Positions 8,657-42,900 of a DNA stretch of 46,457 bases are shown here, piece by piece; positions within the stretch are counted from its first letter, which is position 1, and each line of letters starts with the position of its first letter. The notes under the pieces are model-generated. The model was not told the origin of the DNA. It worked only from the letters and a program-made list of their open reading frames with translations, and searched no databases. The stretch covers positions 28,721 through 75,177 of the forward strand of contig CAZWCD010000001.1 of the NCBI GenBank assembly GCA_964632275.1, read 5' to 3'. The stretch is from an uncultured Thermodesulfobacteriota bacterium. Lineage in GTDB: Bacteria > Desulfobacterota > WTBG01. Made by a program: the position numbers and the translations under genes.

Positions 8657-9012
8657 TCCTCCCTCCTCCTATGATAATGGTATGCACAAGAGTCATCAGC
8701 ATATCGCATGCCATGATGAAACAATTGTTACAACGAGCATGGATATGCAGTGCCATTATTTTAACTACTGGTAATGAAATAATTTTTTTAGAAGGGGAAG
8801 CGAGGGGCGTGGTTTAGTAATATGTATGAATAATAGTCAAAAATATGTTGTGTGACAAAATTTTGACTATTCATTAGCTGTATTTATTTCAAAAGGGTAC
8901 AGATCGGAGTGGCACGTACCGGGGCGGGATGAAGGCGGACGCGATTTGAGCCTGCAGGTCCCCTGCCCCAAATAGTGTCATGTATGACATGCAACAAGTA
9001 AGAGTTCGATGG

Positions 9013-9297
9013 TCAATGGCGGGTCAGTTCGGCAATAACGAAATCCTGCAGTCCATCCTCGTAATCGAGCACCAGCCCCTCCAGTCTTGATGCCAGGTGT
9101 GCCTGGATAAGCAACAACTTCAGACCTTCATGGGTCTTTACCACAAAATCACCCCGCTTTTCTTGGTCCAGTATCAGGTCGAGCTGGCGCGGCGCCTTGG
9201 GGTTAACCGTGATCCGGATGGCCATGCACGGATCATGGGTGTTTTCATGCAGGGCTTCAACCAGTTTTTCCTTTGCCTGGGGTGTTACAATCAGCAT
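9013..9297 (-). CDS. HesB/IscA-fold small protein lacking the cluster-ligating cysteines
   Basis: 94 aa. The pattern 'IVTPQAKEKL...MAIRITV...LDLILDQEKRGDFVVKTHEGLKLLL...LEGLVLDY...FVI' follows the IscA/HesB fold pattern, but the C-terminal CGC motif is absent. Confidence 0.5.
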   Translation of the reverse strand: MLIVTPQAKEKLVEALHENTHDPCMAIRITVNPKAPRQLDLILDQEKRGDFVVKTHEGLKLLLIQAHLASRLEGLVLDYEDGLQDFVIAELTRH

Positions 9298-9573
9298 AGT
9301 GCCCTCCGTTCAGGAGTGTTCCCGTGCCCCGGTGTGAGCCGGGCAGGGAGCGCATCAAAGATGGGGATCTTTCCCGTAGCACTATTACCAATCGACCGCA
9401 GTCAATAAACCTTTAATCTTTTCTTCAAAACCGGTGTTTTTCTCAGGCGCGCAGCACGTGCTGCACGATCGTGCAAGGGAACAGCTGGGGAAAATCCTGA
9501 TTGAGGCGGGGATTGCACAAGAGAAGGGCTTTGCAGTGCTGTTCACAATATACGTTGATTCAGTCTTGTCCAC

Positions 9574-9722
9574 AAACGAGATTGCCGCGCGCAGTTTATC
9601 CTGAGCGAAAAACGAGATTCTCGCGTTGCTCAGAATGACTAGCGAAGGGCTCGCAACAACAAAATAAAACAATGACGCGCAAATAGGGTCGTTGCGAGGA
9701 GCATAAGCGACGAAGCAATCTC
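9574..9722. repeat. cluster of degenerate short GC-rich repeat copies (GAGATTGC.../...GCAATCTC type)
   Basis: AAACGAGATTGCCGCGCGC (9574-), AAACGAGATTCTCGCGTTGCTCAGAATGAC (9609-) and the inverted copy GTCGTTGCGAGGAGCATAAGCGACGAAGCAATCTC (9688-9722). GGCTCGCAACAAC at about 9648 pairs with GTCGTTGCGAGG. Confidence 0.55.
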
Positions 9723-9861
9723 ATTAAAAAAGTTTCATTAAATCAAAAATAATGATCTTGACTTGGACACTAATGACGTTGATCCTCTGAGCGCCTTGTA
9801 AAGCACCCATTCCCGGACCAATCAGATGAATACGCCGGCGCCTCATTCCGCCAGGCTCAAA

Positions 9862-10044
9862 TCACTGAAGGCTGTTGAAAAACTCCACCATGTCCTGTTC
9901 CGCTATAAACCATCTTCCCATTGCCTTCTGCCCGCGGAGTCTGCCCTGCTTTATATAATTTCTGATGGTCACGGTGGTCACGTTGAGCTTTTGCGAAAGC
10001 TCGGAGACCGAGTACAGTATTTGTCCGCTTATGGTGATTGCCAT
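9862..10044 (-). CDS. excisionase-family (MerR-like) helix-turn-helix DNA-binding protein
   Basis: 60 aa counted from the ATG at 10044 (RBS GAGAGG). 'YSVSELSQKLNVTTVTIRNYIKQGRLRGQKAMGRWFI' matches the HTH_17 / excisionase-type pattern. Confidence 0.65.
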   Translation of the reverse strand: MAITISGQILYSVSELSQKLNVTTVTIRNYIKQGRLRGQKAMGRWFIAEQDMVEFFNSLQ

Positions 10045-10287
10045 ACTGTTACCTCTCACTACTATTACCCCCCTTCTTTCGATAAAGAAAGAACATATTT
10101 CCTTAAAAAAAGCAACCCCCGGCGGGAATATGGTTGGGGGCAGAGCAATGACGTCATTTCCTCAGAGCCTGGATAAAATCGCTCTATGGCAAACAATTGC
10201 CCATCACCCCACGGAGGAGAAGAATGGGGCAATGGGCATTGTCTGGCATATCCGGTCCGCGGGGACCTGACCTCATCAGAAGGCGGA

Positions 10288-13023: not shown

Positions 13024-14076
13024 TCAGGCCAGCCGGTCCGCCAGAAAGCTGGTGATGTCCTGCACCGCAACCTTAAACTCTTTCAGCGGGGGCTTCTCGT
13101 TCAGCACACAATTAAGGTGCGCCAGGCATTTGGTGCAGGCAGTCAGCAGTGTGGCCGCGCCGGTCTGCTCGGCCTCTTCAAGCTTCTTGACCAGAAGCGC
13201 CTTGGATTCGGTTGAACATCCAAGCCAGGCGGAGATGCCGCAGCACTGGCAGTCCTCGCGGCTGTTTTCCAGCTCGGCCACCCGCACTCCCTTCACCGAG
13301 GCGAGGAGGTTGCGCGGGGGATCAAAGACCTGCAGGTGCCTGCCCAGCCGGCAGGGATCGTGATAGGTGACCGTTCCCTCTCCCTTGAAGGAAAGCTTGC
13401 CGAGGTGGCGCTCCAGAAACTGGCTGATGTGCAGCACTTCGACATCCAGGGAATAGTCGACGGCAAAAGTGCGGGTGCATTCGGCGCAGCTGGCCACCAG
13501 GGTCTTGATGCCGCTCTCCTGAATCGCCCGGGTGTTGAGCCGGCGCAGCCCGTCAAATGCCTCCTGGTCGCCCTGCCACAGCTCGTCATGGCCGCAGCAC
13601 TTAAGGCCCATCACCCGCGGGGTCACCCCTGCCGCGTTCATCAGCTTTAATGCCGACTCCCCGATGGGGCGAAAGCTGGTGCCCACCTCCAGGAACGAAT
13701 CAAGAAAATCAATGCAGCCGGGGAAGTATCCCACCGGACTGGTGTCATCGCGCTCGCCCTTGAAATCGGTGGGCACGCCGCTCTTCCCGGGAAAGGTGAG
13801 CATCAGCCGGGAGACCAGATTGAACACCGACTTGTGGGCGATGCAGTCAACCTTCGGCTTCCGGCCCCGCCGCGCGTCTCGCATAAAATCGAGGTATCCC
13901 ACGCCCTGGGGACAGTACTGGGAGCACTGGCCGCAGGTCAGGCACGACCAGAGGTCGATCCCCTGCTGCGCCAGCAGCGTCTTTTCCAGGTCGCGACGGG
14001 GTGAATACTTGCTCACCAGCCGCTTGGGGCAGATGCCGGTGCAGAGGCCGCATTGATAACAGGATGTGATGCTCAT
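13024..14076 (-). CDS. HdrD-like Fe-S oxidoreductase (HdrC-type 2x[4Fe-4S] N-terminus fused to two CCG domains)
   Basis: 'CYQCGLCTGICP' and 'CLTCGQCSQYCP', then CCG motifs 'LKCCGHD' and 'CQCCGISAW'. Its start overlaps the upstream stop (ATGA at 14073-14076). Confidence 0.8.
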   Translation of the reverse strand: MSITSCYQCGLCTGICPKRLVSKYSPRRDLEKTLLAQQGIDLWSCLTCGQCSQYCPQGVGYLDFMRDARRGRKPKVDCIAHKSVFNLVSRLMLTFPGKSGVPTDFKGERDDTSPVGYFPGCIDFLDSFLEVGTSFRPIGESALKLMNAAGVTPRVMGLKCCGHDELWQGDQEAFDGLRRLNTRAIQESGIKTLVASCAECTRTFAVDYSLDVEVLHISQFLERHLGKLSFKGEGTVTYHDPCRLGRHLQVFDPPRNLLASVKGVRVAELENSREDCQCCGISAWLGCSTESKALLVKKLEEAEQTGAATLLTACTKCLAHLNCVLNEKPPLKEFKVAVQDITSFLADRLA

Positions 14077-15083
14077 GGTTTTATGTCACCTGCACATGCC
14101 CGTGCTTCGAGCGCGCTCGCGCTTGCCTCGGCCAGGCAGAGGGGAATGTCCTTCATGCCGCTGGCCGCACCCGCGACATAGACCCCCGCGGCGGTGGTGG
14201 TCACCGGTGGTTCCGCAATCGCAAAGAAGCCCAGGTCAGTGAGCGGCAGGTGGAATTGGGCCGCCAGCTCACCGGTCCCCGCCGGGGGAACTCCCCCGAT
14301 GGCAAGGACCACCAAATCGGACCGGAGCGTTTGTGATTCTCCGGTAAGGGTGTTTTCCAACTCAAGGGTTAGGCAGTCCTCTGAGGCAGTCACCCCGGAA
14401 ACGCGCGACCGTATAAACCGGATGCCCTGCTCCCGCGCCTCGGTATACAGGTGTTCGTAGAGGTACGGGGTGCGGATGTCCATGTAGAGAATGTTTATCT
14501 CGGCCCCGGGGTACAGCGCTTTTAATGCCAGGGCTTCTTTGATGGCATAGGTGCAGCAGAAGTATGAACAGTAGCGATTGGTCCTGCGGTCCCGCGATCC
14601 CACGCACTGCAGAAAGGAGATTCTCCCCGGCGCGGTTCCCTGCGATGGCCGCAGCACCCTGCCGTTACTCATCATCTCTTCCAGCTCAAAGGCAGTGATC
14701 ACGTCTTTCAGGCGTCCGTACCCGTACTCCTCAATGACCGCGGGGCCAAAGGGATCAAATCCGGTTGTCAGCACCACGCCGCGCACCTCAAGGGCAGCGC
14801 CGTTTCCTGACAGCTCTATGCGATAGCCGGACGGCAGCGCGGTCACCCGCGCTATCTGTCCGCCGGTTATCACCTCAATATTTTCTTTTGCGATCATGGT
14901 CCGGATGGCGTTGAGCAGATCGGCCGCCGAGTCCCCCTTCGGGAACAGCTTATGGAGGCGTCTCAATTTACCCCCCAGTTCTCCTTCCCGCTCCAGCAGC
15001 GTAACCCTGCCGCCCAGCCGGGAGAGATCCAGGGCCGCCTGCATTCCGGTAATCCCGCCGCCCACCACCAAAAAGCTATTCAT
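14073..15083 (-). CDS. hdrA: short HdrA-like FAD/Fe-S protein (paralog 2)
   Basis: 336 aa. 'LVVGGGITGMQAALDL' dinucleotide fold and the HdrA cluster signature 'FLQCVGSRD...YCSYFCCTYA'. Lacks the ferredoxin and N-terminal HdrA domains. Confidence 0.8.
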   Translation of the reverse strand: MNSFLVVGGGITGMQAALDLSRLGGRVTLLEREGELGGKLRRLHKLFPKGDSAADLLNAIRTMIAKENIEVITGGQIARVTALPSGYRIELSGNGAALEVRGVVLTTGFDPFGPAVIEEYGYGRLKDVITAFELEEMMSNGRVLRPSQGTAPGRISFLQCVGSRDRRTNRYCSYFCCTYAIKEALALKALYPGAEINILYMDIRTPYLYEHLYTEAREQGIRFIRSRVSGVTASEDCLTLELENTLTGESQTLRSDLVVLAIGGVPPAGTGELAAQFHLPLTDLGFFAIAEPPVTTTAAGVYVAGAASGMKDIPLCLAEASASALEARACAGDIKP

Positions 15084-15129: not shown

Positions 15130-15999
15130 TCAGGCAGGCTTGCACTTTTCCAGCAGCGCGCTGGTTTTGATTTTATGCCCCGTGTCCAGCCCCAGCTCCT
15201 TCGCCGGGATGCCCAGCGCCAGGCCGAGCAGCTGGGTGTAAAACACCACCGGGGTGTTCAGAGTCTTGTTGAATTTTCGCTTGGCCATCACCTGCCCCAG
15301 GTCCAGCTGCCTGAAGCAGCCCGGGCAGTTGACAATGATGGCATCCACCGCCCCTTTCTGTTCCACCGCCTTCACCGCGAAGGCATAGGAGGAATCCTGG
15401 TTGTGCGGCAGCAGCAATGAGCCGCAGCAGTGCTCAAATCCCCGGGGCGGCACGGTGCGCGCGGTGGTCGCCTGCACCATGTCCTCCAGCTTGCGGGGAT
15501 AGGCCGCCTGGTCAAAATGGAGCACGTCGCTCGGCTTCACCAGGTGGCAGCCGTTGTGGCAGCCGATGGCGCAGCCGCTTAAGTCCAGCTTGTTCCGCTT
15601 CCTGATCGCCTCCAGCCCGATGACATCATAGAGTATCTGATGAAAGTGGTACACCCGGGCCTTTCCCTGCACGGCCAGGCCGATTTCCTTCAGGACGGCA
15701 TTGACCTTGTTGCGCACATCTTCCTGTTCCAGCTGATGGGCGGCCTTGCTCAGCGTCCCGAAGCAGCCGTTGCAAAGGGTTACGATGTCCAGGCCCCGGG
15801 CCTCGGCCAGGGCGATATTACGGGCGGCAAAGGCGAGCATGGTGAACCCGTCGATGGGTCCGGCCAGCACCCCGCAGCAGCCAAAATCCTCTATATCAGC
15901 GATGGAGATGTCCAGCTCCTTCATCACCGCCCGGGCCGACAGCTCGTAGTTGGGCGCCTGGAGCGGAATCACACATCCCGGATAAAAGGCGTAGCTCAT
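15130..15999 (-). CDS. hdrB: heterodisulfide reductase subunit B-like (two CCG domains)
   Basis: 289 aa. 'YAFYPGC...FGCCGV' and 'HCCGSLL' CCG-type motifs. Start abuts the hdrC stop. Confidence 0.85.
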   Translation of the reverse strand: MSYAFYPGCVIPLQAPNYELSARAVMKELDISIADIEDFGCCGVLAGPIDGFTMLAFAARNIALAEARGLDIVTLCNGCFGTLSKAAHQLEQEDVRNKVNAVLKEIGLAVQGKARVYHFHQILYDVIGLEAIRKRNKLDLSGCAIGCHNGCHLVKPSDVLHFDQAAYPRKLEDMVQATTARTVPPRGFEHCCGSLLLPHNQDSSYAFAVKAVEQKGAVDAIIVNCPGCFRQLDLGQVMAKRKFNKTLNTPVVFYTQLLGLALGIPAKELGLDTGHKIKTSALLEKCKPA

Positions 16000-16458
16000 T
16001 TACAATCCCTTGCTGAATCCGGTCAGCGCGGCAACCTTTTTATAGTCCTCGGAAACATTCTCCTTCAGGGGAGGGAGCCCGAAGGCCTGCCGCTGATTTC
16101 TGGCGGCGCTGGTGATCTCGCTGTTGCGGCCGCACTTGAGCAGTATTCGGTTCATGTCCTTGATCGATTCCGGCGCAAGACCTTTGGCATAGGCGATGTT
16201 GGTGGCCGCCTGCACCTGGTAGAGCGGCTTCACCTTTTGCGGACAGCGCTCATAACAGTTGTAGCAGGTGGTGCAGTACCAGAGTGCGGGATCGGCAAGG
16301 TCAATCTCCCCGTCCATGATCCGCTTCACGATGGCCCGGACATTAAATTCCGGCAGATAGCGGTTGACCGGGCACCCGCCGGTGCAGGTTCCGCACTGGT
16401 AGCACTCGTAGAGGTTATCGGTGCCGTAATACGTGTGCAGTTCGGGCCGCAGATCCAT
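16000..16458 (-). CDS. hdrC: heterodisulfide reductase subunit C-like (2x[4Fe-4S])
   Basis: 152 aa. 'CYQCGTCTGGCP' and 'CTTCYNCYERCP'. Confidence 0.85.
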   Translation of the reverse strand: MDLRPELHTYYGTDNLYECYQCGTCTGGCPVNRYLPEFNVRAIVKRIMDGEIDLADPALWYCTTCYNCYERCPQKVKPLYQVQAATNIAYAKGLAPESIKDMNRILLKCGRNSEITSAARNQRQAFGLPPLKENVSEDYKKVAALTGFSKGL

Positions 16459-16464
16459 ACCCGT

Positions 16465-17481
16465 CTACTCCTTGCAGATAATGGCCGCCTGTGCCGCGGC
16501 GGCCGTGCCCTCGGCCAGACAGGCCCGTATGTCCTTGGGGCCGCCGGCCGCGCCGGCCACAAAAACCCCTTTGGCCCGGGTAAACACCGGGGCCGGCTCA
16601 CAGGCAAAGAACCCTGATTCCTCGGTTGCAATCCCAAGCGTTTCGGCCATGGATGCCGCGTCGCGCGGAGGCTCCGCGCCGACCGAGAGAACCACCATGT
16701 CCGTCTCCATGAAGCGCAGCGCGCCGTCAAGGGTGTCCTCGTACTGAACGGTCAGCCCGCCGTTCTCCCGCCTGGGCCGCACCGCGGCGGGCTTGCTCCG
16801 GATGAAGCCGATGCCCTTGCGGCGGGCGGTTTCATACTCCAGCTCGGCGCAAAACGGGGTGCGAATGTCCATGTACAGCACCTCCACCCGGCAGCGGGGA
16901 ATCCGCTCCTTGACCTGCAGGGCCAGGTGAACCGCGTACATGCAGCAAAACGCGGAGCAGTAGGTGTGGGTGCGCAGCTCGCGCGAGCCGATGCACTGGA
17001 TGAAGGCCAGCGCGCCCGGCTGCTCGCCGTTTGAGTTTCTGAGCAACCTGTCCCCCTTGAGATTGTCCGCCAGCTCCACGGCGGTAATCACGTCCGGGTG
17101 CCTGCCGAACGCGTAGTGCTTCATGCCTGCGGGATTAAACGGGGTAAAGCCGGTGGCCAGAATGATCGAACGGCACTCCACCTCGCGTGTTCCCTCCGGG
17201 TTCTTGAGCGATGCCTTGAACCGGGGATAGGCACCCCCCAGCGAGATAATCTCGGTGCCGGTGAGCACGGTGACCCGGGATGAGGAAGCGATTGCCTGCG
17301 CCCGTTGTTCGATCAGTTCCGGGGCCGGCGTCCCGCCCCCGAAGGTTGCCCCCAGGGACTTGAGGTTGCCGCCCAACCGATCCTCGCGCTCCGCCAGGAT
17401 AACCGCTATTCCCACGCGCGCCAGGCTGGCTGCTGCCTGCAAACCGGTAATCCCGCCGCCCACCACAAGCACGCTACTCAC
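16465..17481 (-). CDS. hdrA: short HdrA-like FAD/Fe-S protein (paralog 1)
   Basis: 338 aa, GTG start. 'LVVGGGITGLQAAASL' and 'FIQCIGSRE...YCSAFCCMYA'. Its start overlaps the TAG of the read-through mvhD by 8 nt. Confidence 0.8.
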   Translation of the reverse strand: MSSVLVVGGGITGLQAAASLARVGIAVILAEREDRLGGNLKSLGATFGGGTPAPELIEQRAQAIASSSRVTVLTGTEIISLGGAYPRFKASLKNPEGTREVECRSIILATGFTPFNPAGMKHYAFGRHPDVITAVELADNLKGDRLLRNSNGEQPGALAFIQCIGSRELRTHTYCSAFCCMYAVHLALQVKERIPRCRVEVLYMDIRTPFCAELEYETARRKGIGFIRSKPAAVRPRRENGGLTVQYEDTLDGALRFMETDMVVLSVGAEPPRDAASMAETLGIATEESGFFACEPAPVFTRAKGVFVAGAAGGPKDIRACLAEGTAAAAQAAIICKE

Positions 17482-17908
17482 TGGCCGGCACTCCTTCCCG
17501 TTTCATGGGCCCCAGGCCCTTGAGATCTTCAGTAAAATCGCGCATCACCTCGGCGAACTTCCCCCCTTCCGAGGCGGATATCCACTCAAGGCGGAAGCGC
17601 GCCGTCTCGATGCCCATCTGCTCCAGATAGCGGGTGGCGTTCTTTATTCTTCTCTCGGCGTTATAATTACCATCCTGGTAATGACATTCGCCGAGGTGTC
17701 ACCCGGCCACCAGCACCCCGTCGGCGCCGTCGATGAACGCGCGCAGGATCATGGTGGGGTCGATGCGGCTCGAGCACATGACCCGGATGATCCGCGCCGT
17801 GGCGGGATACTGCAGTCGGCTCACGCCGGCCAGGTCGGCGCCGGCATAGCTGCACCAGTTGCAGCAGAACGCGACGATGCGGGGAGTGAAGTTGTGCTGT
17901 TCATTCAT
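17474..17908 (-). CDS. mvhD: MvhD-type (methyl-viologen-reducing hydrogenase delta) protein, probable selenoprotein (UGA at codon 70)
   Basis: ATG at 17908 ('[28 protein letters not shown]...'). In-frame TGA at 17699-17701. Read-through gives 74 more codons ('[13 protein letters not shown]...[17 protein letters not shown]') that align with the Cys-containing MvhD domain of 21855..24290. TAG at 17474-17476. This fills an otherwise empty 217-nt gap in the operon. Confidence 0.8.
17654..17695 (-). promoter_or_regulatory. SECIS-like stem-loop downstream of the mvhD UGA
   Basis: mRNA: UGA-CAC-CUCGGCG-AAUGUC-AUUACCA-GGA-UGGUAAU-UAUAA-CGCCGAG. Two perfect 7-bp helices separated by an internal loop. 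The structure starts 3 nt after the UGA and has a G-rich apical loop. Confidence 0.55.
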
Positions 17909-20900
17909 TGGATACCTTCTCCATCTTGACTGCTGCCTGATCAATCATTGCCTCTATCTGTTCGGTGGTGAAGTGGAGCGGGGAAATGGCTCCCACCGGA
18001 CAGGTCGCGGCGCAGGAACCGCACCCCTTGCAGGAGGCGGGGTTGATCGTCGCCTTGCGCGCATTGAATGCCAGGGACTCCAGACGCACCTTCCGGTCCT
18101 CCAGGCTGATCGCCCGGTAGGGGCAGACCTCTACGCACAGGCCGCACCCCTTGCAGCGCGTTTCATCGATGACCGATATGTTTGCCTCTGCCTCAACCTT
18201 TCCCCGGGCCAGCAGGATCCCGGCGCGCGAGCCCGCCGCATTGGCCTGGGCGATGGTCTCTTCGATGTGCTTGGGATAGTGGGCCATGCCGCAGAGAAAG
18301 ACGCCTTCGGTGGCAAAATCAACCGGGCGCAGCTTGACATGGGCCTCCAGGAAGAAACCTTCCTTGCTCAACGGGACCTTAAAAAGCTGACCCAGCTCCT
18401 TGTTGCTTTCCGGCGGCACGGTCGCCACTGAAAGCACCAGCAGGTCGGCTTCAAGGGAGAGCCGCGCATCAAGGAAGGGATCCCGGGCGCTGATCATCAG
18501 CCGGTCTCCATCAAAACCGGCCTCGGGTTTGTTCTGGAGGGTATAGCGGATAAACACCACCCCTGCGTCGCGCGCCTTCCGGTAATAGTCCTCCTTGAAT
18601 CCGTAGGTCATCATGTCGCGGTAGAGAACATAGACATTGACCTCCGGGTTGCGATCTTTCAGCGTCAGCGCGTTTTTTACCGCCTTGGTGCAGCATATCC
18701 GGCTGCAGTACGGGCGCTCCTCGCTGCGCGATCCCACGCACTGGATCATCACCACGTTTTTTGCCTGCTTGATCCGGGGGCTTTGTTTCTCCAGCTCGCC
18801 CTCCAGCTCTTTCTGGGTGAGGACGCGGCCGTCCTTTCCGTACCCGTATTCATCGGGCTTGAATTCCTGCGCCCCGCTGGCAATGATCGCCGCGCCGTGT
18901 TTGATCTCCACCGGTTCCTTCCCGCCCTTTAAGGCAACGGTTGAGGTGTAGCTTCCCACATATCCGGAGACCTTTTGGAGCTCGGCGCCGGTGTGCACGG
19001 TAATGCGGGGATGCTTCATCACCCGGTCGACGAGCGATGCCAGGTATTCCTGCACATCTGCGCCTTCCAGGGTGCTGTAAAGGGACCGTGCGGTGCCGCC
19101 GAGCTGCGCTTCCTTTTCCAGCAGGAAGACCGAAAAGCCCTGATCGGCAAGGTTGAGGGCGCTCACCATGCCGGCAATGCCCCCGCCGATAACCAGCGCG
19201 GAGGGATTGAGCTCCAGGGTAAGCCGCTTGAGCGGCACAATCAAGCCGGCCCGCGCCACCGCCATGCGCACCAGGTCCTTGGCCTTCTCGGTGGCGGCCG
19301 CTTTATCCTGCTGGTGCACCCAGCTGCACTGATCGCGGATGTTGGCCAGCTCAAACAGGTAGCGGTTCAGTCCCGCCTCCTGGATGGTTTCCTGAAAAAG
19401 CGGCTCGTGGGTGCGGGGCGAACATGAGGCAACGACCACCCGGTTGAGCTTGTGCTCGGCAATGAGCGCCTTGATTTTCTCCTGGGTATCCTGGGAGCAG
19501 CTGTAGAGGTTCTCTTCCGCGTACACCACGTTGGGAAGTTCCCGGGCAAGGGCAACCACCGATTTCACATCCACCACCGAACCGATATTGATGCCGCAGT
19601 GGCAGACAAACACACCGATGCGGGGGGTCTGCCCCGACACGTCCAACTCGGCGGGGAGCTTTTTCTCCTGCACCAGCATCTTGCGTGCGGGACTGAGCAG
19701 GGCCGCGGCAAGGCCGGCGGCGCCGCTTGACTGGGCCACCGTTTCCGGGATGTCCTTCGGCCCCTGGAAGAGGCCGGTCACAAAAATCCCCGGCTTGCTG
19801 GTATCGAGCGGGGAGAGCGTCCCCGAGCTGCAGAACCGGTGCTGGTTGAGATCAATCCCGAGCGCTGCGGCCAGCTCCCTGCTGCTCCGTGACGGCTCCA
19901 AGCCCACCGAGAGCACCACCAGCTCAAACTCCTCCTCCCGTATCTTTCCCTCTTCGCTGACGTACTTTATCAGGAGGTTGCGTGTATCCGGCAGCTCCTT
20001 GACCGACGATACATTGGAGGGAACAAAGCGTATGCCGTGCTTGTCCCGCGCCTCGGTGTAGTATGCGTCAAAGCCCTTGCCGTATGCCCGGATATCCATG
20101 TAAAAAATGGTGATGTCCATTGCCGACGCATGTTCCTTGGCAATGATCGACTCCTTCACCGCGTACATGCAGCACACCCCGGAGCAGTAGCCGTTGCCGT
20201 ACTGAAGGTCGCGCGAACCGACGCACTGGATGAAGGCGACGCGTTTGGGCTCGGCCTTGTCCGAAGGCCGCCGGACGTGTCCCTCATAGGGGCCCGAGGC
20301 CGAAAGCAGCCGCTCGAACTGGATGCTGGTGACCACGTTCTCGTAGCGGCCGTAGCCGAAGGGATATTTCCGGGCCGCATCGTATTCGTCAAACCCCGGC
20401 GACAGGATCACCGCGCCCACCGGGAGGTCCCGCACTTCCTCCTTCATCTCAAAGTTGACCGCCCCGGCCTTGCACACCTTGACGCAGAGCTGGCACTTGC
20501 CCTTGGTCAGGAAGCGGCAGTAGCGGGGATCGATGTGGTAGACATGGGGCACCGCCTGGGGATAGGGGATGGAGATCGCCCGGCGCTGGGAAAATCCCTC
20601 GTTGAACTCGTCGCTCACCTTCGAGGGGCATTTCTCGGCGCAGGCACCGCAGGCGACGCATTTGGCCGGGTCCACATAGGACGGCTTGCGCAGGACGGAA
20701 ACGGTGAAGTTGCCCGGCTCCCCGCTAATGCCGGTAATCTGTGAGTGGGTGAGGATTTCAATGTTGAGATGTCTGCCGCACTCCACCAGCTTGGGTGACA
20801 GGATGCACATGGAGCAGTCGTTGGTGGGAAAGGTCTTGTCCAGCTGGGCCATGGCGCCGCCAATGACCGGAGAGCGCTCCACCAGGTACACGAAGTACCC

Positions 20901-21005
20901 CGCGTCGGCCAGGTCCAGCGACGCCTGCACCCCGCCCACGCCCCCTCCCGCCACCAGGACGGATCCGACTATGGTGCGCTCCCGCGCCGCTTCCGGCTCT
21001 GTCAT
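17901..21005 (-). CDS. hdrA: large double-module HdrA-like flavo-iron-sulfur protein
   Basis: 1034 aa. Module 1 has '[17 protein letters not shown]', '[17 protein letters not shown]', 'FIQCVGSRD...[10 protein letters not shown]' and ferredoxin Cys motifs. The middle has '[14 protein letters not shown]'. Module 2 has '[16 protein letters not shown]' and '[23 protein letters not shown]'. The C-terminus carries '[12 protein letters not shown]' and '[12 protein letters not shown]'. Confidence 0.88.
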
Positions 21006-21198: not shown

Positions 21199-21690
21199 TC
21201 AAAACGGGAAGGGTGTTTTCTTCTCTTCGGAACCGGCCGCTTCGGATGTCCCCCAGAACACAAAGCTGACCTTTTGCTCCTGTCCGGTTTCATTGATCAA
21301 TTCATCAAGCGTCATGGTGCCGGCAATGGAGCGGTCGAAAAGCAGGATTCCTTTTGCGGAAAATGCGTAGCGGTAGTGCTTTGTTTGTTTCATGACGGTG
21401 GCGGAAAAGTCCGCCGCGAACATAAGGCCGTCCCTCGTGTAGGTGCCGGAGGATTCCTTGAAGTCAACGCCGGGAATCTGTATCTCGAAGGCGTGGCCGT
21501 CGCTGAAGATAAAAAGGGATGAGGAAATGCTGTGGCCGGGAGAAAGGCTGAGAAAGCCGGTTGAAAACGTCAGGGGAACTGCTGCGCTGGTCCCTGCACT
21601 GCGGCCGCTCTCCTTCGAATCTGCCGCCGGACCCGCCGCAAGGGAACCGCTCTGCAATGCCAGCATCAACAGGCAGAGCAAGGTTCGCAT
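21199..21690 (-). CDS. hypothetical secreted protein
   Basis: Start set at 'MRTLLCLLMLALQSGSLAAGP' (signal-peptide-like). No motif that I recognise. Sits alone between two hdr gene sets, with gaps of about 165 nt and about 190 nt on either side. Confidence 0.45.
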   Translation of the reverse strand: MRTLLCLLMLALQSGSLAAGPAADSKESGRSAGTSAAVPLTFSTGFLSLSPGHSISSSLFIFSDGHAFEIQIPGVDFKESSGTYTRDGLMFAADFSATVMKQTKHYRYAFSAKGILLFDRSIAGTMTLDELINETGQEQKVSFVFWGTSEAAGSEEKKTPFPF

Positions 21691-21854
21691 GCAAACCGTA
21701 CCCGCGTGAGACCAGTGCGATTGCATATTCGCTGTCCGCGTGCATGTTTTGGGAGCACCAGTGATAGACTGGAAGGCAGATAATCTCGCAACGTGCCCTC
21801 CCCCGGCGCTTCAGCACCCTCACATTCCCCCGCTGCGGGCTGCGCACGCTGCGC

Positions 21855-24290
21855 TTACTGGGTGCCGAGCGCCTTGATGGTTTCTTCCACCTCCTGGTCG
21901 CTGACGCTCTGCCGCAGCGCATCCATGCGCTTCATGACCTCGGCAAACCGCACGCCTTCCGCCGCGCTGATCCACTCAAGCTGCAGCCGCTCCGTCCGCA
22001 TGCCCAGCGTTTCCATCTTCTTGTGGATTTTGGCCACGCGCTTTTCCGTCCAGTGATTGGCGTTGATATAGTGACAGTCGCCGATGTGACAGCCGCTCAC
22101 CAGGATGACCGGGGCGCCCTTGCTGAACCCGCGCCACACGAAATCCTCATCAACCCGGCCCGAGCACATGGTGCGGATAATCCGCGCATTGGGCGGATAC
22201 TGCAGCCGGGAGACACCGGCAAAGTCGGCGCCGGCGTAGGAGCACCAGTTGCAGGCAAAAACCAGCACCTTCTCCCGGGGGCGCTCAGCCAGCATTGCGT
22301 CGATCTGCCCGGTGATCTGCTCGTCGGTGTAGTGATTCATGATGATGGCGCCGAACGGACATTCGGCGGCGCAGGTGCCGCAGCCGGCGCAGGCCGCCGC
22401 CGTGACCACGGCGGGGGCCTTTTGCTTGGTGTTGACCGTGATCGCATTATAAGGACATACCTCCGCGCACTTGCCGCAGGACCGGCAGTGCTCCTCGACC
22501 ACGGTTGAAATGATGGGCTCGGCAGTGATTTCGCCCCGGTGCATGAGCCGGATGGCCCTGCCGGCGGCGGCGGAGGCCTGGGTCACCGATTCCTTGATGT
22601 CCTTGGGCCCTTCAGCGCAGCCCGCAAAAAAGACGCCCCGGGTGGCGGCATCAACCGGCTGCAGCTTGGGATGGGCTTCAAGAAAGAATCCGTCCGGCGT
22701 GAGCTGCAGCCCGAGCATCTCCTGCAGCCGGTGGGTTTCGGCCGCCGGCTGCACCCCCAGCGCAAGAACGAGCATGTCCAGGTCGTAGCGGTCAATCCTG
22801 CCGGTGGCGGTGTTCTCGACCGCGACCTGCAGGCTTCCGTCAGGCAGCTCCTTCACCGTCCCGGGAAGGCCGCGCAGGTAGTGAACGCCGAGGCGGCGGC
22901 TGCGCATGTACAGGTCCTCGAAGCCCTTGCCGAAGGCGCGGATGTCGATATAAAACACCTTGATGCTCATGTCCGGGTAATGCTCCTTGAGCATGAGGGT
23001 GCTTTTGATGGTGTTCATGCAGCAGATGTTGGAGCAGTAGGTCCCTCCATTGCGCAGCGAGCGCGACCCCACGCACTGGATGAATCCCACCGAGCCCGGC
23101 CTTTTGCGATCTGTCGGCCGCACCAGTTCGCCCTGGGTGGGCCCCCCCGCGTTAATCAGGCGCTCCAGTTCAATGCTGGTGACCACGTTTTCAAACCGGG
23201 TGTAGCCGTACTCGTCAAGCTCCGCCGGGTTGTAGGGCTCGACGCCGGTGGCCACCACGATGGTTCCCACCTGTTCGGTCAGCTCCTCGTCGGACATGTG
23301 AAAGTTGATGCAGTGCTTCTGGCAGACCTCCAGGCACTTCGCGCAGACCGCCGGATTGAAGCCGAGGCACTCCTGGCTGTTGATCATGTAGGAGGACGGC
23401 ACCGCCTGGGGAAAGGGCTTGAAAATCGCCCGGCGCGAGGAAAGCCCGGCATTGTACTCATCCGGCCGCACCACCGGGCAGACGTTCACGCAGTCCCCGC
23501 AGGAGGTGCACTCGCGCTCATCCACGTAGCGGGCGCGCTTGCGCAGGGTGATCTTAAAATTGCCGACCGAGCCCTTGACGTCGACCACCTCGGTGAGCGT
23601 GTACAGCTTGATGCGGGGATGTCGACCGACATCCGTCATTTTGGGACCGAGTATTCATATGGAGCAGTCCATGGTGGGAAAGGTCTTGTCCAGCTGCGCC
23701 ATCAGCCCGCCGATGGAGGGCTGCCGTTCCACCAGGACCACCTCGTAGCCGCTGTCGGCAAGGTCAAGGGCGGCCTGGATGCCGGAGACGCCCCCGCCGA
23801 TCACCATGGTGCGCCGGGTGAGCGGCAGCGTCTCCTCCTCGAGGCTGCAGAGCGCGGCGGCCCGGCTGACCGCCATTTTCACCAGGTCGATGGCCTTCAG
23901 GGTTGCGGCCCCGGGATCGTGCATGTGCACCCAGCTGCACTGCTCGCGCAGGTTCGCCATTTCCATAAGGTAGGGATTGAGCCCGGCGCTCTGCATCATC
24001 TTGCGAAAGGTGGGCTCATGCAGCCGGGGCGAGCATGACGCGACCACCACCCGGTTTATCTCCGCCTCTTCGATGTCTTTGGCTATTTCCGTCTGACCCG
24101 GGGTTGAGCACGCATAGGCGATGACCTTGGTCAGCACGACCCCCGGCTCGCCTGCAGCGGCTTCGGCAACGCGCGCGCAGTCAACCGTCTGGGCGATGTT
24201 CATGCCGCAGCGGCAGACAAAGACCCCGATGCGGGGTGATTGCGCCGATGCGGCGGTTGCCGGCGTCACCTGCTGGCTTTGCGTTTTCAT
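21855..24290 (-). CDS. hdrA: HdrA / MvhD fusion protein (QmoB-like architecture), probable selenoprotein (UGA at codon 212)
   Basis: Two ORF-track ORFs (23655..24362 and 21855..23639) are in the same frame and separated only by the TGA at 23655-23657. The joined sequence 'DKTFPTMDCSI-U-ILGPKMTDVGRH' parallels '[24 protein letters not shown]' in 17901..21005. Start at ATG 24290 (RBS AAGGA). The C-terminal MvhD domain reads '[16 protein letters not shown]...VSGCHIGDCHY'. Confidence 0.8.
23617..23634 (-). promoter_or_regulatory. SECIS-like hairpin downstream of the hdrA UGA
   Basis: mRNA: GGAUGUC-GGUC-GACAUCC, a 7-bp stem with a GGUC tetraloop. The loop GU lies about 30 nt 3' of the UGA. Confidence 0.45.
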
Positions 24291-24336
24291 ATCCGTTTTC
24301 CTTTTGCACGTAAAGAGTGACCCGCAACCGGTGGAC

Positions 24337-25914
24337 TTACTCCCACCTGATGGTCCGGGCAAGCACGCCGGTCAGATCCATCATCTCCATTGTGATATCG
24401 TTTCCCCTGAAGGGATCCTCCATGGCGCAGGTAAGATGAATCTGGCACTTGGGGCATGAGGTCACCAGCAGATCGCTGCCGGTTGCGCGGGCCTGCTCCA
24501 GTCGCTTGACCTGCAGCGCCTTGCTGTACGCGTCGCACCCGGTCCAGGCGCTGTTGCCGCAGCAGATTGAGGCGCGGCCGTGGTCCTGCATTTCCCTGAA
24601 GCTATCCTGCCCCAGCCGTTCAATCAGCCGGCGGGGCAAATCGGGCCGGCCGTCAAACCGGCTCAACCGGCACGAGTCCTGGAAGGTCATGGATCGGCCG
24701 AGCCGGCTGAAGGCAACTTTTCCCTTGCTGATCTCCCGGTCGAGCAGCTCGTAGAGATGAATCACCTCGACGCCGGTCTCGACGCCGAATGCCGGGTAAT
24801 CGTGCTTGAAGGTCCGGTAGCACTCGGGGCAGGACGTCACCACCTGCTTGATGCCCCGCGCGCGCAGGGCCTCCACGTTCAGCCGCGCCAGGCGCAAAAA
24901 ACTGTCGCGGTCGCCGGACCAGAGCAGATCATGGCCGCAGCACCGCTCATCGGAGAGCAGCGCCGGCCGCATATCGAAGAAATTTAACAGCCGCAGGCTA
25001 TCGGCCAGGATGTCCCGCGTGCGCAGGTTCAGGAAATTCTGAAAAAAGAAATCAAAAAATGCGGCGCAGCCGCCCCAGTAGAGCATGGTGCTGCTGGGGT
25101 CAACCGCGATGTCCGGGGGAAGCCAGTCCCACCGCCGCGGGGTCAGCCGCGGGGCAGCGAGCGTTCGCTGCAGCGTCTGGAAAAAGCCGGCATGAGCCTG
25201 GGCCGGGCGGTCGCCGCGGTAATCCAGCGATATGCGCAGGTCGCGGACAAATTCCGAAAAGCGAACCGCCGACGGGCACCGCTCGTAGCACATGCCGCAG
25301 GTCAGGCACGAGGCAACCGCATCCTTCACCGCGGGCGAATCGGTATCGCCGGCAATAATCGACGAAGCGAGCGAGCGGGGCGAAAACGCCTTTCCCGACA
25401 GCGACAGCGGGCATGCCGATGTGCACTTGCCGCAGTCCTGGCAGGCAAACACGTCGTGCCGCTGCACAATGCCGGTCAGCGGCTCCTCAACCGGCGCTTC
25501 CGGCGCGGATGCCGCAATCGGGGTTTTGCCCAGCGCGCGAATTTCCGCGGTGAACCGTTTGAGAAATGCCAGCATGCCCTCATGCTCGTCGGGCAGAAAG
25601 GTTTCAAAGCGCAGGCGCTCGCGGTTCAGGCCGAGCAGGCCGAGGATTTCGCGGGTGTTCCCGATGTTCTTCTCCGAGGTCTCGGTGCCGCTGCCGTAGC
25701 GGCAGGCGCCCGGCCGGCACCCGGCAAGGGCCACGCCGTCCGCGCCGAGCTCAAAGGCCTTCAGCAGCAGGGCCCGGTTGATGCGGCCGGCGCAGGGCAC
25801 CCGGACCGCCTTTATTTCATCGGGTATATCGGCGGCCTGCTCCTGCAGGGTATGAAAGGCCGAGTGCGGCCCCCAGTTGCACAGATAGAGCAGTATGGTA
25901 AACGTATCCTTCAT
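24337..25914 (-). CDS. MvhD-like domain fused to an HdrD-like (2x[4Fe-4S] + CCG domains) oxidoreductase
   Basis: Start set at ATG 25914, which forms an ATGA overlap with the upstream stop. N-terminus 'FTILLYLCNWGPHS...VPCAGRIN...LAGCRPGACRY', then 'CQDCGKCTSACP' and 'CLTCGMCYERCP', then CCG motifs 'RCCGHDL' and 'ICCGNSAW'. Confidence 0.8.
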   Translation of the reverse strand: MKDTFTILLYLCNWGPHSAFHTLQEQAADIPDEIKAVRVPCAGRINRALLLKAFELGADGVALAGCRPGACRYGSGTETSEKNIGNTREILGLLGLNRERLRFETFLPDEHEGMLAFLKRFTAEIRALGKTPIAASAPEAPVEEPLTGIVQRHDVFACQDCGKCTSACPLSLSGKAFSPRSLASSIIAGDTDSPAVKDAVASCLTCGMCYERCPSAVRFSEFVRDLRISLDYRGDRPAQAHAGFFQTLQRTLAAPRLTPRRWDWLPPDIAVDPSSTMLYWGGCAAFFDFFFQNFLNLRTRDILADSLRLLNFFDMRPALLSDERCCGHDLLWSGDRDSFLRLARLNVEALRARGIKQVVTSCPECYRTFKHDYPAFGVETGVEVIHLYELLDREISKGKVAFSRLGRSMTFQDSCRLSRFDGRPDLPRRLIERLGQDSFREMQDHGRASICCGNSAWTGCDAYSKALQVKRLEQARATGSDLLVTSCPKCQIHLTCAMEDPFRGNDITMEMMDLTGVLARTIRWE

Positions 25915-28900
25915 GGGTTGCTTCCCGCTTCCGAAGGCAGCAATGCCTCCTCCAGCACCCGTTCGAGAAACGCGTGGTTGCGGAACGGGCTGTCGGCGGC
26001 ATTCGAGGGGCAGACCGAAATGCAGTTGCCGCACCCTTTACACAGGGCGTCATCCACCGATGCCACCCAGCCGCCCACGCCGTTTTGTTTATAGCTTATG
26101 GCCTGATACGGGCAGTACCTGCTGCACCTGCCGCAGCCGCGGCAGATGCTCTCGTCCACCACCACGGTGAACCCGCGGCTCGATCGCGGACCCTGGGGCA
26201 TGCTCGCGGCGGCAAGCGCTGCCGCGGCGGCGCCGCGTTCGCGGTCGGACACCCTGATGCCCGCCGGATCGGCGATGTACAGTCCCGACACCGATGTCGT
26301 GCCCGGATACATGAACGGAACGCCCACGCGGCCCGCCTGCTGCATCGATGAAATGATGTCGCGCCCGGGCAGCTCGGCCTGGTAGATATGCTTTATCTCT
26401 TCAGCGGCCTTCGCGCTCATGATGACCGCTCCCGCCTGAATAAACTGATCGGCGCCGGCCCCATCCTGAAACAGCACCTGAAAATCCCCGAGCATGCCGC
26501 GCACGCCGGTTACCCGCGCGGCGCTGAAGCAGTGTATGCCGGGATGCCCGGCGGCATCCCCGTCTTCCGCCCGGTTGAACCAGAAGACCTCGTACCCCAT
26601 CTGCGCGAGCACCTGGGCGCTGTGCGCCGCGGCTTCGGAGCTGCCGATGACGGCGGTGGTAAAGTTGTAGTTTCGCGCCGGAGAGGGCAGCGGCTTTAAC
26701 ATCAGCGCCCGTTCAATGGAGCTGTCGATCAGCTCCCGGAAGCGGGCGAGCGCCCGCTCCGGATGCATGCGCGCCAGCCGCAGCACTTCGCCGCGCAGGT
26801 TGCACATTTCAACCATGGACCGGCTCACGCCGGTTCCGGTAAAGAGCGCGGCCTTGAGGCGGCTGCGCTGGTCGGTGCAGGAGCTGCAGACAAAATTGAG
26901 CGAGCAGCATGCGCATGAGGCAAGCACGACCCTGGTTATCCCCTTTTCCCGGATGGAGCGCAGAATGGCGGCAGCTCCTTCATCAATGCACGCGGCGGTG
27001 ACGCTTTCGGCGTGCACGATCCCCTCCCGCCGGGGCAGCTCATTAATAGAGGCGGTCATCTCCTCAAGCCAGCCGAGTGCGTCGTTGCAGCGGCAGGCAA
27101 AGACGCCGATGCGCATGTCGGATGACAGCGCCGGGCCGGGAGGTGAAAATGAAACGCTGTGCCCCTTGGACCGCTGCGGGCTTCCGCCCAGGATCATCAT
27201 CGCCCGTGAGGCGGCGGCAAAACCGCGCACCACCAGGGAAAGGGTGTCCGACCCCGCGCTTTTGGTATCGTAGGCCCTGATGACGTCTTCTCCGGATATG
27301 CGATGGCCCGCGGCGGGATCGGCGATAATCACCACCCCGGCATTTTCAACGACTTCACGGGCGGGCTCATCGTGGGTAATTGCGCCGATCTGCGAGCAGG
27401 CGGCGGCGCACTGCAGGCACTGTGAACAGATGCCGCACTGCAGGCACCGCTCCGCTTCCCGCGCGGCCTGGTCGGCGCTCAGCCCCTGAGCCACTTCACG
27501 AAAAGTCGTGCGCCTCGCTTCGGGATGCAGAACCGCCATTTCCTCGCGGGTAAGCCGCGGCGCAGCGGCGGGAATGGGCTGATAATCCCTTTCATCCGGC
27601 CTTTGCGGCGGCGGGGGCAGGAAGTCCTTCTTGAAAACCGTCTGCAGAATCGAGCGCGCTGCATTCCGTCCCGAGGCCATGGCCTCAACCACCGATGTCG
27701 GTCCGGTAACCGCATCCCCTCCAGCCATGATGCGGTTCAGACCGGTTTTCATCCGCTCATCGATTACCAGGTAGCCCTGCCGGTTTACCTGCAGCCCGGC
27801 GCCCGCCGTGGGCGTAAGCGGACCGGCCTGGCCGATGGCGACATAGGCCCGGTCAAATGAAAGCACCTGCTGCGTGCCCGCGGGATCGGTAACCGGCCAG
27901 GCAATGCCGTTTGCATCGGGCGGACCGGGGATGGTTGGAACGCAGCAGATCTGTTCAAGCGCGCTCCCTCCTCCCTTGAATGCGACCACGCGCAGTTTAT
28001 CCCGGATGGTGACGCCCTCCGCGATGGCATCGGACACCTCTTCAGGATCGGCGGGAATGGCGTCCCGCGCAAACCAGGACAGCACGGTTACCGCGGCGCC
28101 GAGCCGCACCAGGGCGCGGGCCAGATCGAAGGCGCTGTTGCCGTCTCCGATGACCGCAACCCTGCCCTGCACCTCGCTGATCTCGCCGCGGTACAGCCGG
28201 TTCAGCGCGGCAAGGCAGCCGTCAACCCCCTGCAGATCCTCACCGGGCACGCCCAGCTTCCGGTCGAGCCAGCTGCCCGTGGCCAGGACGAGGAAAGCGA
28301 ACTTTTTCAGCAGACCGTCAAGCCCGAGGGAAAGGTCAACCGGATGACCGGTCACCAGCTGTACGCCGAGGTCCTGTATGTAGCGCAGGTCCTGATCGAG
28401 AATGTCGTCCGGCAGCCGGTACCGTCCGATGCCATAGCGCAGCAGGCCGCCCGCGAGCGTTTCCTTTTCATACACCGTTACCTCGCAGCCGTTCCGGGCG
28501 AGCTCCGCGGCGGCGGCGAGTCCGGCGGGACCCGAGCCGACCACGGCGACTTCTGTTTTTGGCGAAGTAACCGGGGCCGGTCGGTCCGCGGCGGCGCCAT
28601 TGGTTACCGCCGCGCTGTCGGTGACAAAGCGCTTGAGCGTGCGAATCGCAACCGGCGCATCAATGTCGGAGCGCCGGCATGCCGCCTCGCAGGGATGGGT
28701 GCAGATGCGCCCGCAAATGCCGGGCAGCACGTTTTCCCGGCGGATCATCTCAAGCGCCTCGGCGTATTTGCCCGCCTGCACCAGCGCGATGTAGCCCTGC
28801 GCGTTCACGCCCAAGGGACAGCGCTCCTGACAGGGGGGCGTCTTGGCTTTTTCAATCCGCGCCCGGCCGGGAATACTCCGGCGGCTTGCAATGCGTATCG

Positions 28901-42706: not shown

Positions 42707-42900
42707 ATGCTAGATTGATTTGATTTTTCCCTTTCAGATTATCAGAAAAGTTAGATGCAAAACAAATAAAAAATGATCTGCCTTGGTCCAATTAAAATGC
42801 TCATTAAAAACTTATGAATCACATTACCTGAAAGGAGGTGAGGGTACCGTTCTATTCATTTTCAATCCGGTTCAATTCTAATCATGGAGGAGGTAGAAAG

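Follow-up and report, generated by a model that had tools for sequence, protein, structure and literature searches.

An in-frame UGA in a stand-alone mvhD gene of an uncultured Desulfobacterota bacterium is very probably a selenocysteine codon

Introduction

Does the mvhD gene in a stretch of DNA from an uncultured Thermodesulfobacteriota bacterium (GTDB lineage Desulfobacterota; WTBG01) end at its first in-frame TGA, or is this codon read as selenocysteine (Sec)? The stretch, hereafter referred to as the window, is 46,457 nucleotides (nt) long and comprises positions 28,721 to 75,177 of contig CAZWCD010000001.1 (assembly GCA_964632275.1). On its minus strand, an mvhD-like open reading frame (ORF) stops at a TGA and is followed by an apparently empty gap between hdr-type genes. 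A first-pass annotation, made from the sequence without database searches, had proposed that the UGA is a probable Sec codon followed by a hairpin resembling a Sec insertion sequence (SECIS) element. After comparing the locus with protein families, genomes and metagenomes, we find it very probable that 17908-17474 (minus strand) is one UGA-recoded MvhD gene whose UGA, at 17701-17699, is decoded as Sec.

The first-pass annotation had called MvhD/VhuD an established selenoprotein family, and the literature, which also uses the name "FrhD", bears this out for both bacteria and archaea (PMC1794560, PMC2702500, PMC13188914). FrhD (the same protein as MvhD) stands third in a family table from 2006, with 19 bacterial selenoproteins (PMC1794560), and four Sec-MvhD genes beside hdrA/hdrL were described in Desulfobacterium autotrophicum in 2009 (PMC2702500). 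Sec-MvhD next to hdrA has thus been on record since 2006-2009. Our result is an annotation correction with nothing new in kind, and "mainly an annotation catch", the earlier description of it, is accurate, as the family, the site, the context and the SECIS type were already known.

Results

Reading through the UGA completes an MvhD protein

The minus-strand frame opens with an ATG at 17908-17906, meets the in-frame TGA at 17701-17699 and continues to a TAG at 17476-17474, giving 69 codons, the UGA (Sec70) and 74 further sense codons, or 144 amino acids (aa) in all. The un-called gap past the TGA spans 17698-17482 (217 nt), and the TAG shares an 8-nt overlap with the GTG start of the next gene (17481-17479). 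On the upstream side, the ATG shares an 8-nt overlap with the TGA stop of an hdrA gene (17903-17901): ATGAATGA. The gap, the 74-codon extension and the downstream overlap agree in every coordinate with the first-pass annotation. The ORF lister had called an 81-aa ORF from a TTG at 17944; the N-termini of homologues favor the ATG at 17908, which supports the latter as the probable start.

With Cys put in place of the UGA, the product matched Pfam PF02662 (FlpD/MvhD) along the whole profile (1-123 of 123; E 8e-56; 187.8 bits, against a curated cut-off of 22.3 bits), and this full-length match needs read-through of the UGA. The 144-aa product also matched the NCBIfam VhuD model at 138.8 bits (E 1.1e-40), which is below the strict 215-bit cut-off of that model and makes the protein a family member, not a VhuD equivalog. 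MvhD chains in the PDB (5odc_D and 8rvu_F) aligned without gaps across the UGA over residues 6-139 (E ~1e-54). On the basis of the translation, the profile matches and the PDB chain alignment, 17474-17908 holds a complete mvhD gene of the FlpD/VhuD type, and the proposed change of the gene model from 81 to 144 aa stands.

We then aligned the UGA column with 12 database homologues and the window's two other MvhD-like domains. The UGA lies in the motif G-U-H-L-G-E-C-H-Y, and its column (G-C-H-x-G-x-C-H-Y) was occupied by Cys in 14/14 of the other sequences. A column-for-column alignment with the MvhD domain of the paralog at 21855-22280, which the first-pass annotation had also reported, puts the UGA on a Cys as well. 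The Cys at this place in the motif is nearly invariant.

The UGA and the downstream frame recur in relatives

If the TGA were a true stop, the locus would be a pseudogene or a split gene leaving a 69-81-aa fragment, or the TGA would be a sequencing or assembly error for TGC/TGT. Mechanical ORF calling does end at the TGA, and the window shows no sel machinery, as this explanation would have it. We scanned 185,579 species-representative genomes with the pattern G-A-x6-G-TGA-H-x-G-x-C-H-Y, which we had checked on the window. A TGA was present at the mvhD column at no fewer than 120 loci (at least 120) in species genomes, all of them true MvhD genes, with ~70-76 or more open, conserved codons downstream where the locus was not cut by an end. 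Among the matches listed, the lineages include Desulfobacterota, Syntrophomonadaceae, Desulforudis, Pelotomaculum, Dehalococcoidia, Planctomycetota, Cloacimonadota and others, and the species include Desulfosarcina widdelii, Desulfosudis oleivorans and Desulfospira joergensenii. One genome locus (L085) carries an MvhD homologue with in-frame TGAs at both position 19 (LCTW-U-AYA) and position 70 (G-U-H), so the two Sec sites known for the family can coexist in a single bacterial protein.

Scanning metagenomes with the MvhD protein yielded 80 loci. The motif was found in 18/19 of the closest relatives (76-99% aa identity), and 18/18 of these had the TGA together with the same apical hairpin. More distant copies (~60-70% aa identity) had TGC/TGT in 60/62 cases and TGA in 2/62. 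One close relative (L121, contig JAEAMF010000458.1) matches the window in gene order and, along 6.4 kb, in 98% of its DNA letters. The downstream frame was open in all close relatives, with stops confined to the last few tail codons, and orthologs that end at the TGA and lose conservation beyond it were not seen among them. Relative to the window, relatives with at most 92% aa identity showed 12-29 synonymous codon changes and the three closest showed 2-6, a pattern past the UGA that indicates that the region is translated.

These observations make a true stop extremely unlikely. The TGA is shared by 18 independently assembled relatives and by at least 120 genomes, and the 74 downstream codons remain open, change mainly in synonymous or conservative ways and complete the Pfam domain. 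As for a split gene, neither a start codon nor a ribosome-binding site is present after the TGA, where the nearest Met is 27 codons on, and the fragment would lose two conserved Cys. The recurrence of the TGA and the conserved downstream frame largely refute the true-stop, pseudogene and sequencing-error explanations. The TGA was found in all of the motif-bearing close relatives, which favors the earlier call of a probable Sec codon.

A hairpin downstream of the UGA carries a codon signature of Sec forms

Beginning 3 nt past the UGA, the mRNA can form CUCGGCG-AAUGUC-AUUACCA-GGA-UGGUAAU-UAUAA-CGCCGAG (17654-17695, minus strand), which is written here as the first-pass annotation had drawn it and which is also the minimum-free-energy (MFE) structure. 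This full SECIS-like stem-loop has a lower stem (CUCGGCG/CGCCGAG), a middle part (UGU/AUA) and an upper stem (AUUACCA/UGGUAAU). Its MFE is -20 kcal/mol, compared with -9.9 +/- 2.6 kcal/mol for dinucleotide shuffles (z -3.85), and 1/200 shuffles folded as well. The apical mini-hairpin AUUACCA-GGA-UGGUAAU (17666-17682, minus strand), singled out by the rules for bacterial SECIS (bSECIS) elements and by its conservation, is presumably the part bound by SelB. Its GGA loop is at 17673-17675, 23 nt past the UGA.

Published bSECIS rules, as summarized in a 2026 review, specify a loop of 3-9 nt, an upper stem of 4-16 base pairs (bp), a G within loop positions 1-2, a UGA-to-loop distance of 16-37 nt and an MFE of at most -7.5 kcal/mol (PMC13188914). 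The mvhD hairpin agrees with 4/4 of these rules, with its 3-nt GGA loop, 7-bp stem, 23-nt spacing and -20 kcal/mol. We scored bSECIS geometry with a purpose-written script instead of bSECISearch. By this measure, the geometry was present in 117/118 Sec forms from genomes and 20/20 from metagenomes, compared with 21/60 Cys forms; when a hairpin of at most -4 kcal/mol was required in addition, just 8/60 Cys forms were left.

The hairpin lies within the coding sequence, over codons His76, Tyr77, Gln78, Asp79, Gly80 and Asn81, and synonymous positions are therefore held fixed. The apical hairpin is identical in close relatives, and 101/118 Sec forms from genomes preserve its stem columns. Codons of the apical stem are His76 CAU, Tyr77 UAC, Gly80 GGU and Asn81 AAU. 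Sec forms used CAT for His in 100/118, GGT for Gly in 100/118 and AAT for Asn in 114/118, whereas the same codons appeared in 20/60, 6/60 and 20/60 of the Cys forms, respectively. Across the genes of the window, GGT accounts for only 8% of Gly codons, and the hairpin segment of 63 nt has a guanine-plus-cytosine (GC) content of 43% vs 58% for the window. Local folding over columns 14-42 averaged -6.7 kcal/mol in Sec forms vs -2.8 kcal/mol in Cys forms (Mann-Whitney p 1.5e-23). This contrast at synonymous sites points to selection on the mvhD hairpin at the RNA level, beyond what the protein would need.

In the alignment of the genome loci (L001-L120, columns 16-36), the apical hairpin occurs in three registers. 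Register 1 (CAUUACC-NGGAN-GGUAAU) is used by most lineages and also by the window, register 2 (UGCCACUA-UGK-UAGUGGCA) by Firmicutes-type and some other sequences, and register 3 (GCCACUA...UGGUGGC, with a larger loop) by Smithella-like genomes. The register follows the lineage and residues 78-79 (L/Q-E/D, V/G-S, I-S), and the codon positions used differ. As a by-product, the apical hairpin of the SECIS in this family can be described as written in His-Tyr-x-x-Gly-Asn codons, in three registers across phyla.

We also built a covariance model (R1) from 118 other Sec-form segments, leaving the window out. R1 scored the mvhD site at 67.8 bits (E 1.5e-16), the Cys paralog (22029-22091) at 26.2 bits and the third MvhD-like domain at 5 bits. 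Because RNAalifold gave few pairs, R1 is mostly a sequence model, and we read its score solely for how the Sec site compares with the Cys paralog.

Observations that weigh against Sec decoding and a conserved SECIS element

Several observations weigh against reading the UGA as a Sec codon followed by a conserved RNA element. First, selA, selB, selD and tRNA-Sec are absent from the 46-kb window, which has no tRNA at all. Second, the genome scan required a TGA in its pattern, so its at least 120 loci give recurrence and not a Sec:Cys frequency. Third, the Sec forms are mutually related, and the Sec-vs-Cys statistics are not phylogenetically independent.

The remaining points concern the RNA. RNAalifold found only 4 pairs in the consensus of the 118 Sec-form segments, which reflects the superposition of the three hairpin registers. 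Classical covariation was weak in the same 118 sequences: double changes occurred at 5 pairs, a number that did not exceed that of shuffles. The percentage of paired positions and the covariation score beat all shuffles, but double-change pairs and extra pair types, the measures least prone to phylogenetic artefact, did not. The apical stem is nearly invariant in most lineages, which accounts for the weak classical covariation, and the RNA argument accordingly draws on the synonymous-site and Sec-vs-Cys contrasts and on the alternative registers. The lower stem is present in the window and its nearest relatives and is lost at 80-85% identity. Some compensatory changes were seen in it across the 118 sequences (pairs 8-47, 9-46 and 12-43), and these are not universal. 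Given this decay, we claim only the apical part as conserved. Finally, Rfam at gathering thresholds gave no match to the hairpin in a search of the whole window, and at E<=10 on 17400-18000 the sole match was a spurious long noncoding RNA on the opposite strand; as the SECIS model content of Rfam was unchecked, we do not count this result against the bSECIS reading.

A second in-frame UGA lies at the CxxU site of an HdrA-MvhD fusion

A paralogous hdrA-mvhD fusion gene (21855-24290, minus strand), delineated from ORFs, Pfam matches and the paralog alignment, contains another in-frame UGA at 23657-23655. This UGA links the ORFs 23655-24362 and 21855-23639 into one gene, with 211 aa, Sec and 599 aa making up an HdrA-MvhD fusion of 811 aa. 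In the sequence ...KTFPTMDCSI-U-ILGPKM..., the UGA falls opposite the last Cys of the DCSMC site in the HdrA encoded at 17901-21005, and CxxU is a listed Sec site of HdrA (PMC13188914). The MvhD domain of the fusion has Cys (TGT) at the column of mvhD Sec70. A candidate hairpin, GGAUGUC-GGUC-GACAUCC (23617-23634, minus strand), lies 27 nt past this UGA and has a 7-bp stem, a GGUC loop and bSECIS geometry. Its 63-nt fold is no better than that of shuffles (z -0.03), and the case for it is one of geometry and context only.

This second UGA at an HdrA CxxU site suggests that the organism decodes Sec. The largest bacterial selenoproteomes, with multiple copies of Sec-HdrA and Sec-MvhD, are from Desulfobacterota/"Deltaproteobacteria" (PMC1794560, PMC2702500). 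A homology search with the leucyl-tRNA synthetase (LeuRS) of the window placed the organism among uncultured members of this group, which is as far as the search resolved it, and membership in a group so rich in Sec users favors Sec decoding.

UGA might instead be a sense codon (Trp or Gly) throughout the genome. A six-frame scan of the window found many TGAs flanked by at least 50 open codons; a recognizable gene with a Cys-aligned column was found only at 17701-17699 and 23657-23655. These are the only two in-gene UGAs, both Cys-aligned in known selenoprotein families, and homologues have Cys at the UGA column, not Trp or Gly. Ordinary genes of the operon do end in UGA, for example hdrA at 17903-17901, and the GC content of 58% and the taxon Desulfobacterota also speak against such a code. 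The UGA stops of the neighboring genes refute an alternative genetic code, to which we assign practically no chance.

Recoding could also deliver a residue other than Sec. SelB-dependent insertion of Cys at UGA occurs in some Desulfobacterota. Here, machinery of the SECIS/SelB type would recode the mvhD UGA as Cys, by a Cys-accepting tRNA(Sec)-like tRNA or by mis-acylation when selenium is scarce. The sequence evidence bears on recoding, and nothing in it tells Sec from Cys insertion. The family, however, is documented as a selenoprotein family in the three publications cited above for it, and a costly UGA and hairpin are kept in the 120 or more species although TGC would serve, which speaks for a residue other than the one TGC encodes. 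We therefore regard Cys insertion as highly unlikely, and we infer that Sec is inserted at position 70.

Sec70 would replace a probable cluster-ligand Cys

The conserved Cys set of the protein, C16, C19, C45, U70 and C75, corresponds to Cys13/16/42/67/72 of PDB MvhD. Cys16 of MvhD (C19 here) is an additional, non-ligand Cys (PMC13580544). A literature search for papers that directly name all four [2Fe-2S] ligands of MvhD yielded only this statement of Cys16 as additional. With Cys16 (C19 here) excluded among the five conserved Cys, C16, C45, U70 and C75 are left as the [2Fe-2S] ligands. By this elimination, Sec70 is probably a [2Fe-2S] ligand in place of a metal-ligand-type Cys, and the first-pass annotation, which had used that term, was probably right.

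The N-terminal MvhD-like domain of the ORF at 24337-26034 keeps C16, C45, C70 and C75 and has Gly at position 19. A domain of this kind without C19 agrees with a non-ligand Cys at position 19. The ORF (minus strand) encodes a 565-aa protein in which the MvhD-like domain is fused to ferredoxin and CCG (HdrD/GlpC-like) domains, and which has a weak match to NCBIfam "diclust_near_Sec".

His68 and Asp71 of MvhD (His71 and Glu74 here) are located at the interface with the Cys202/Cys205 pair of HdrA (PMC13580544). Whether Sec70 itself binds the [2Fe-2S] cluster of MvhD through a Se-Fe bond, beside His71 and Glu74 facing the CxxC/CxxU pair of HdrA, is in our judgement evenly balanced on the sequence comparisons. 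Were it so, the many Sec-MvhD lineages would form a natural series on the tuning by selenium of the one-electron/two-electron hand-over in Hdr complexes, and the Hdr paralogs of this organism, with Sec on either side of the gap between MvhD and flavin adenine dinucleotide (FAD), would join that series.

Gene neighborhood and other features of the window

The gene upstream of mvhD (17901-21005, minus strand) encodes a 1034-aa HdrA-like protein with two flavin/Rossmann modules and ferredoxin domains, identified by NCBIfam HdrA2, Pfam and sequence. Its HdrA2 match (1039 bits) is split in 3 stretches, and its own CxxC site (DCSMC) has Cys. The protein is a tandem HdrA with FAD/Rossmann modules at residues 13-53 and 603-640, and it recalls BamE, the subunit of class II benzoyl-CoA reductase in which two HdrA are fused. 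The window contains no BamB/C-like tungsten subunit.

Downstream, the gene whose GTG start overlaps the mvhD TAG (16465-17481, minus strand; ORF list, Pfam and NCBIfam) encodes a 338-aa HdrA-like flavoprotein. It is followed in turn by an hdrC-like gene (16000-16458), an hdrB-like gene (15130-15999), a second small HdrA-like gene (14073-15083) and an HdrD-like gene (13024-14076). mvhD is therefore associated with hdrA on both sides, by the tandem hdrA upstream and the hdrA-like gene downstream, and relatives show this synteny too.

Three further regions of the window drew our attention. Between the two hdr/mvhD clusters, 21199-21726 (minus strand) contains an ORF of 175 aa whose N-terminus is hydrophobic and which has no match in Pfam. 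At 42838-46368 (plus strand), an ORF of 1176 aa has an N-terminus resembling a signal peptide, together with many Cys-rich repeats in tandem (motifs such as C-x-DG-x-FCNG-x-E-x-C and DSCNE); a Pfam search to E 0.01 gave no match, and the product may be a repeat protein of unknown family that is secreted or located at the cell surface. The ~1.6 kb at 8657-10287, between a GGDEF response-regulator gene and rpoD, contains no ORF of more than 130 aa, Rfam match or tRNA.

Discussion

The corrected model replaces a 69/81-aa fragment and a 217-nt "gap" with a single 144-aa selenoprotein, and the hdrA-mvhD fusion gene needs correction too. Truncation by automatic callers costs the MvhD domain two conserved Cys and skews reconstructions of Hdr-type bifurcating complexes in uncultured Desulfobacterota.

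By analogy with the established bacterial pathway, the mRNA 3' of the UGA would fold and its apical AUUACCA-GGA-UGGUAAU would be bound by SelB-GTP carrying Sec-tRNA(Sec). The ribosome would then receive Sec in its A site, with release factor 2 as the competitor; without selenium, termination at the UGA would leave a 69-aa fragment. The product would be a 144-aa [2Fe-2S] electron-transfer subunit of the MvhD/VhuD type, in which Sec70 would replace the Cys just before His71 and Glu74 and face the CxxC/CxxU pair of HdrA, on the route by which electrons leave the MvhD cluster for the bifurcating FAD. Through its two 8-nt overlaps, the gene is probably coupled in translation to the tandem-HdrA gene and to the HdrA/HdrC/HdrB-like set, and the product would therefore be the adaptor subunit of a cytoplasmic, flavin-based electron-bifurcating complex of the Hdr type.

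The SECIS of Escherichia coli fdhF, the bacterial paradigm, is likewise a stem-loop 3' of the UGA inside the ORF, with a small apical loop, G in its first positions and a fixed distance from the UGA, although it has no sequence similarity to the window hairpin. In archaea, Sec insertion uses a SECIS in the 3' untranslated region and a different elongation factor. Unlike this archaeal arrangement, the window element follows immediately after the UGA and is of the bacterial type. The proteins themselves are homologous along their full length to archaeal VhuD (Methanococcales) and MvhD (Methanothermobacter/Methanothermococcus, PDB 5ODC; E ~1e-54), which have the adaptor role proposed here, with a [2Fe-2S] cluster feeding HdrA. 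VhuD, itself a selenoprotein, can have as many as two Sec (PMC13188914). Neither a large nor a small subunit of Mvh/Vhu hydrogenase is encoded in the window.

BamF of the class II benzoyl-CoA reductase of Geobacter metallireducens is an MvhD-fold [2Fe-2S] selenoprotein that works with the double-HdrA BamE (bioRxiv 10.64898/2026.04.10.717634), and the position of the window mvhD directly after a 1034-aa tandem HdrA resembles this pair. BamF differs in being more than 100 aa longer and in its context, as the window is without a BamB/C-type tungsten subunit. Its Sec is Sec19, at the extra non-ligand Cys of the CxxC, whereas the window protein has Cys19 and Sec70. The Sec site described here is thus a presumed cluster-ligand Cys, unlike the Cys19 site of BamF.

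The closest counterparts are the Sec-MvhD proteins of Deltaproteobacteria ("FrhD", COG1908/PF02662), including mvhD1/2/3/5 of D. autotrophicum HRM2 and the multiple copies in Syntrophobacter fumaroxidans. They belong to the same family and, like the window gene, are stand-alone genes of ~140 aa directly after hdrA/hdrL, with an in-frame UGA and a SECIS hairpin within the coding region (PMC2702500, PMC1794560). The window protein has only 52-63% aa identity to Sec forms among the matches listed, and its clade (L121-L139) is slightly closer, at ~70%, to Cys-type homologues, the named ones of which are mostly archaeal. It shares the G-U-H-x-G-x-C-H-Y column with at least 120 species genomes and is otherwise indistinguishable from the known Deltaproteobacterial Sec-MvhD.

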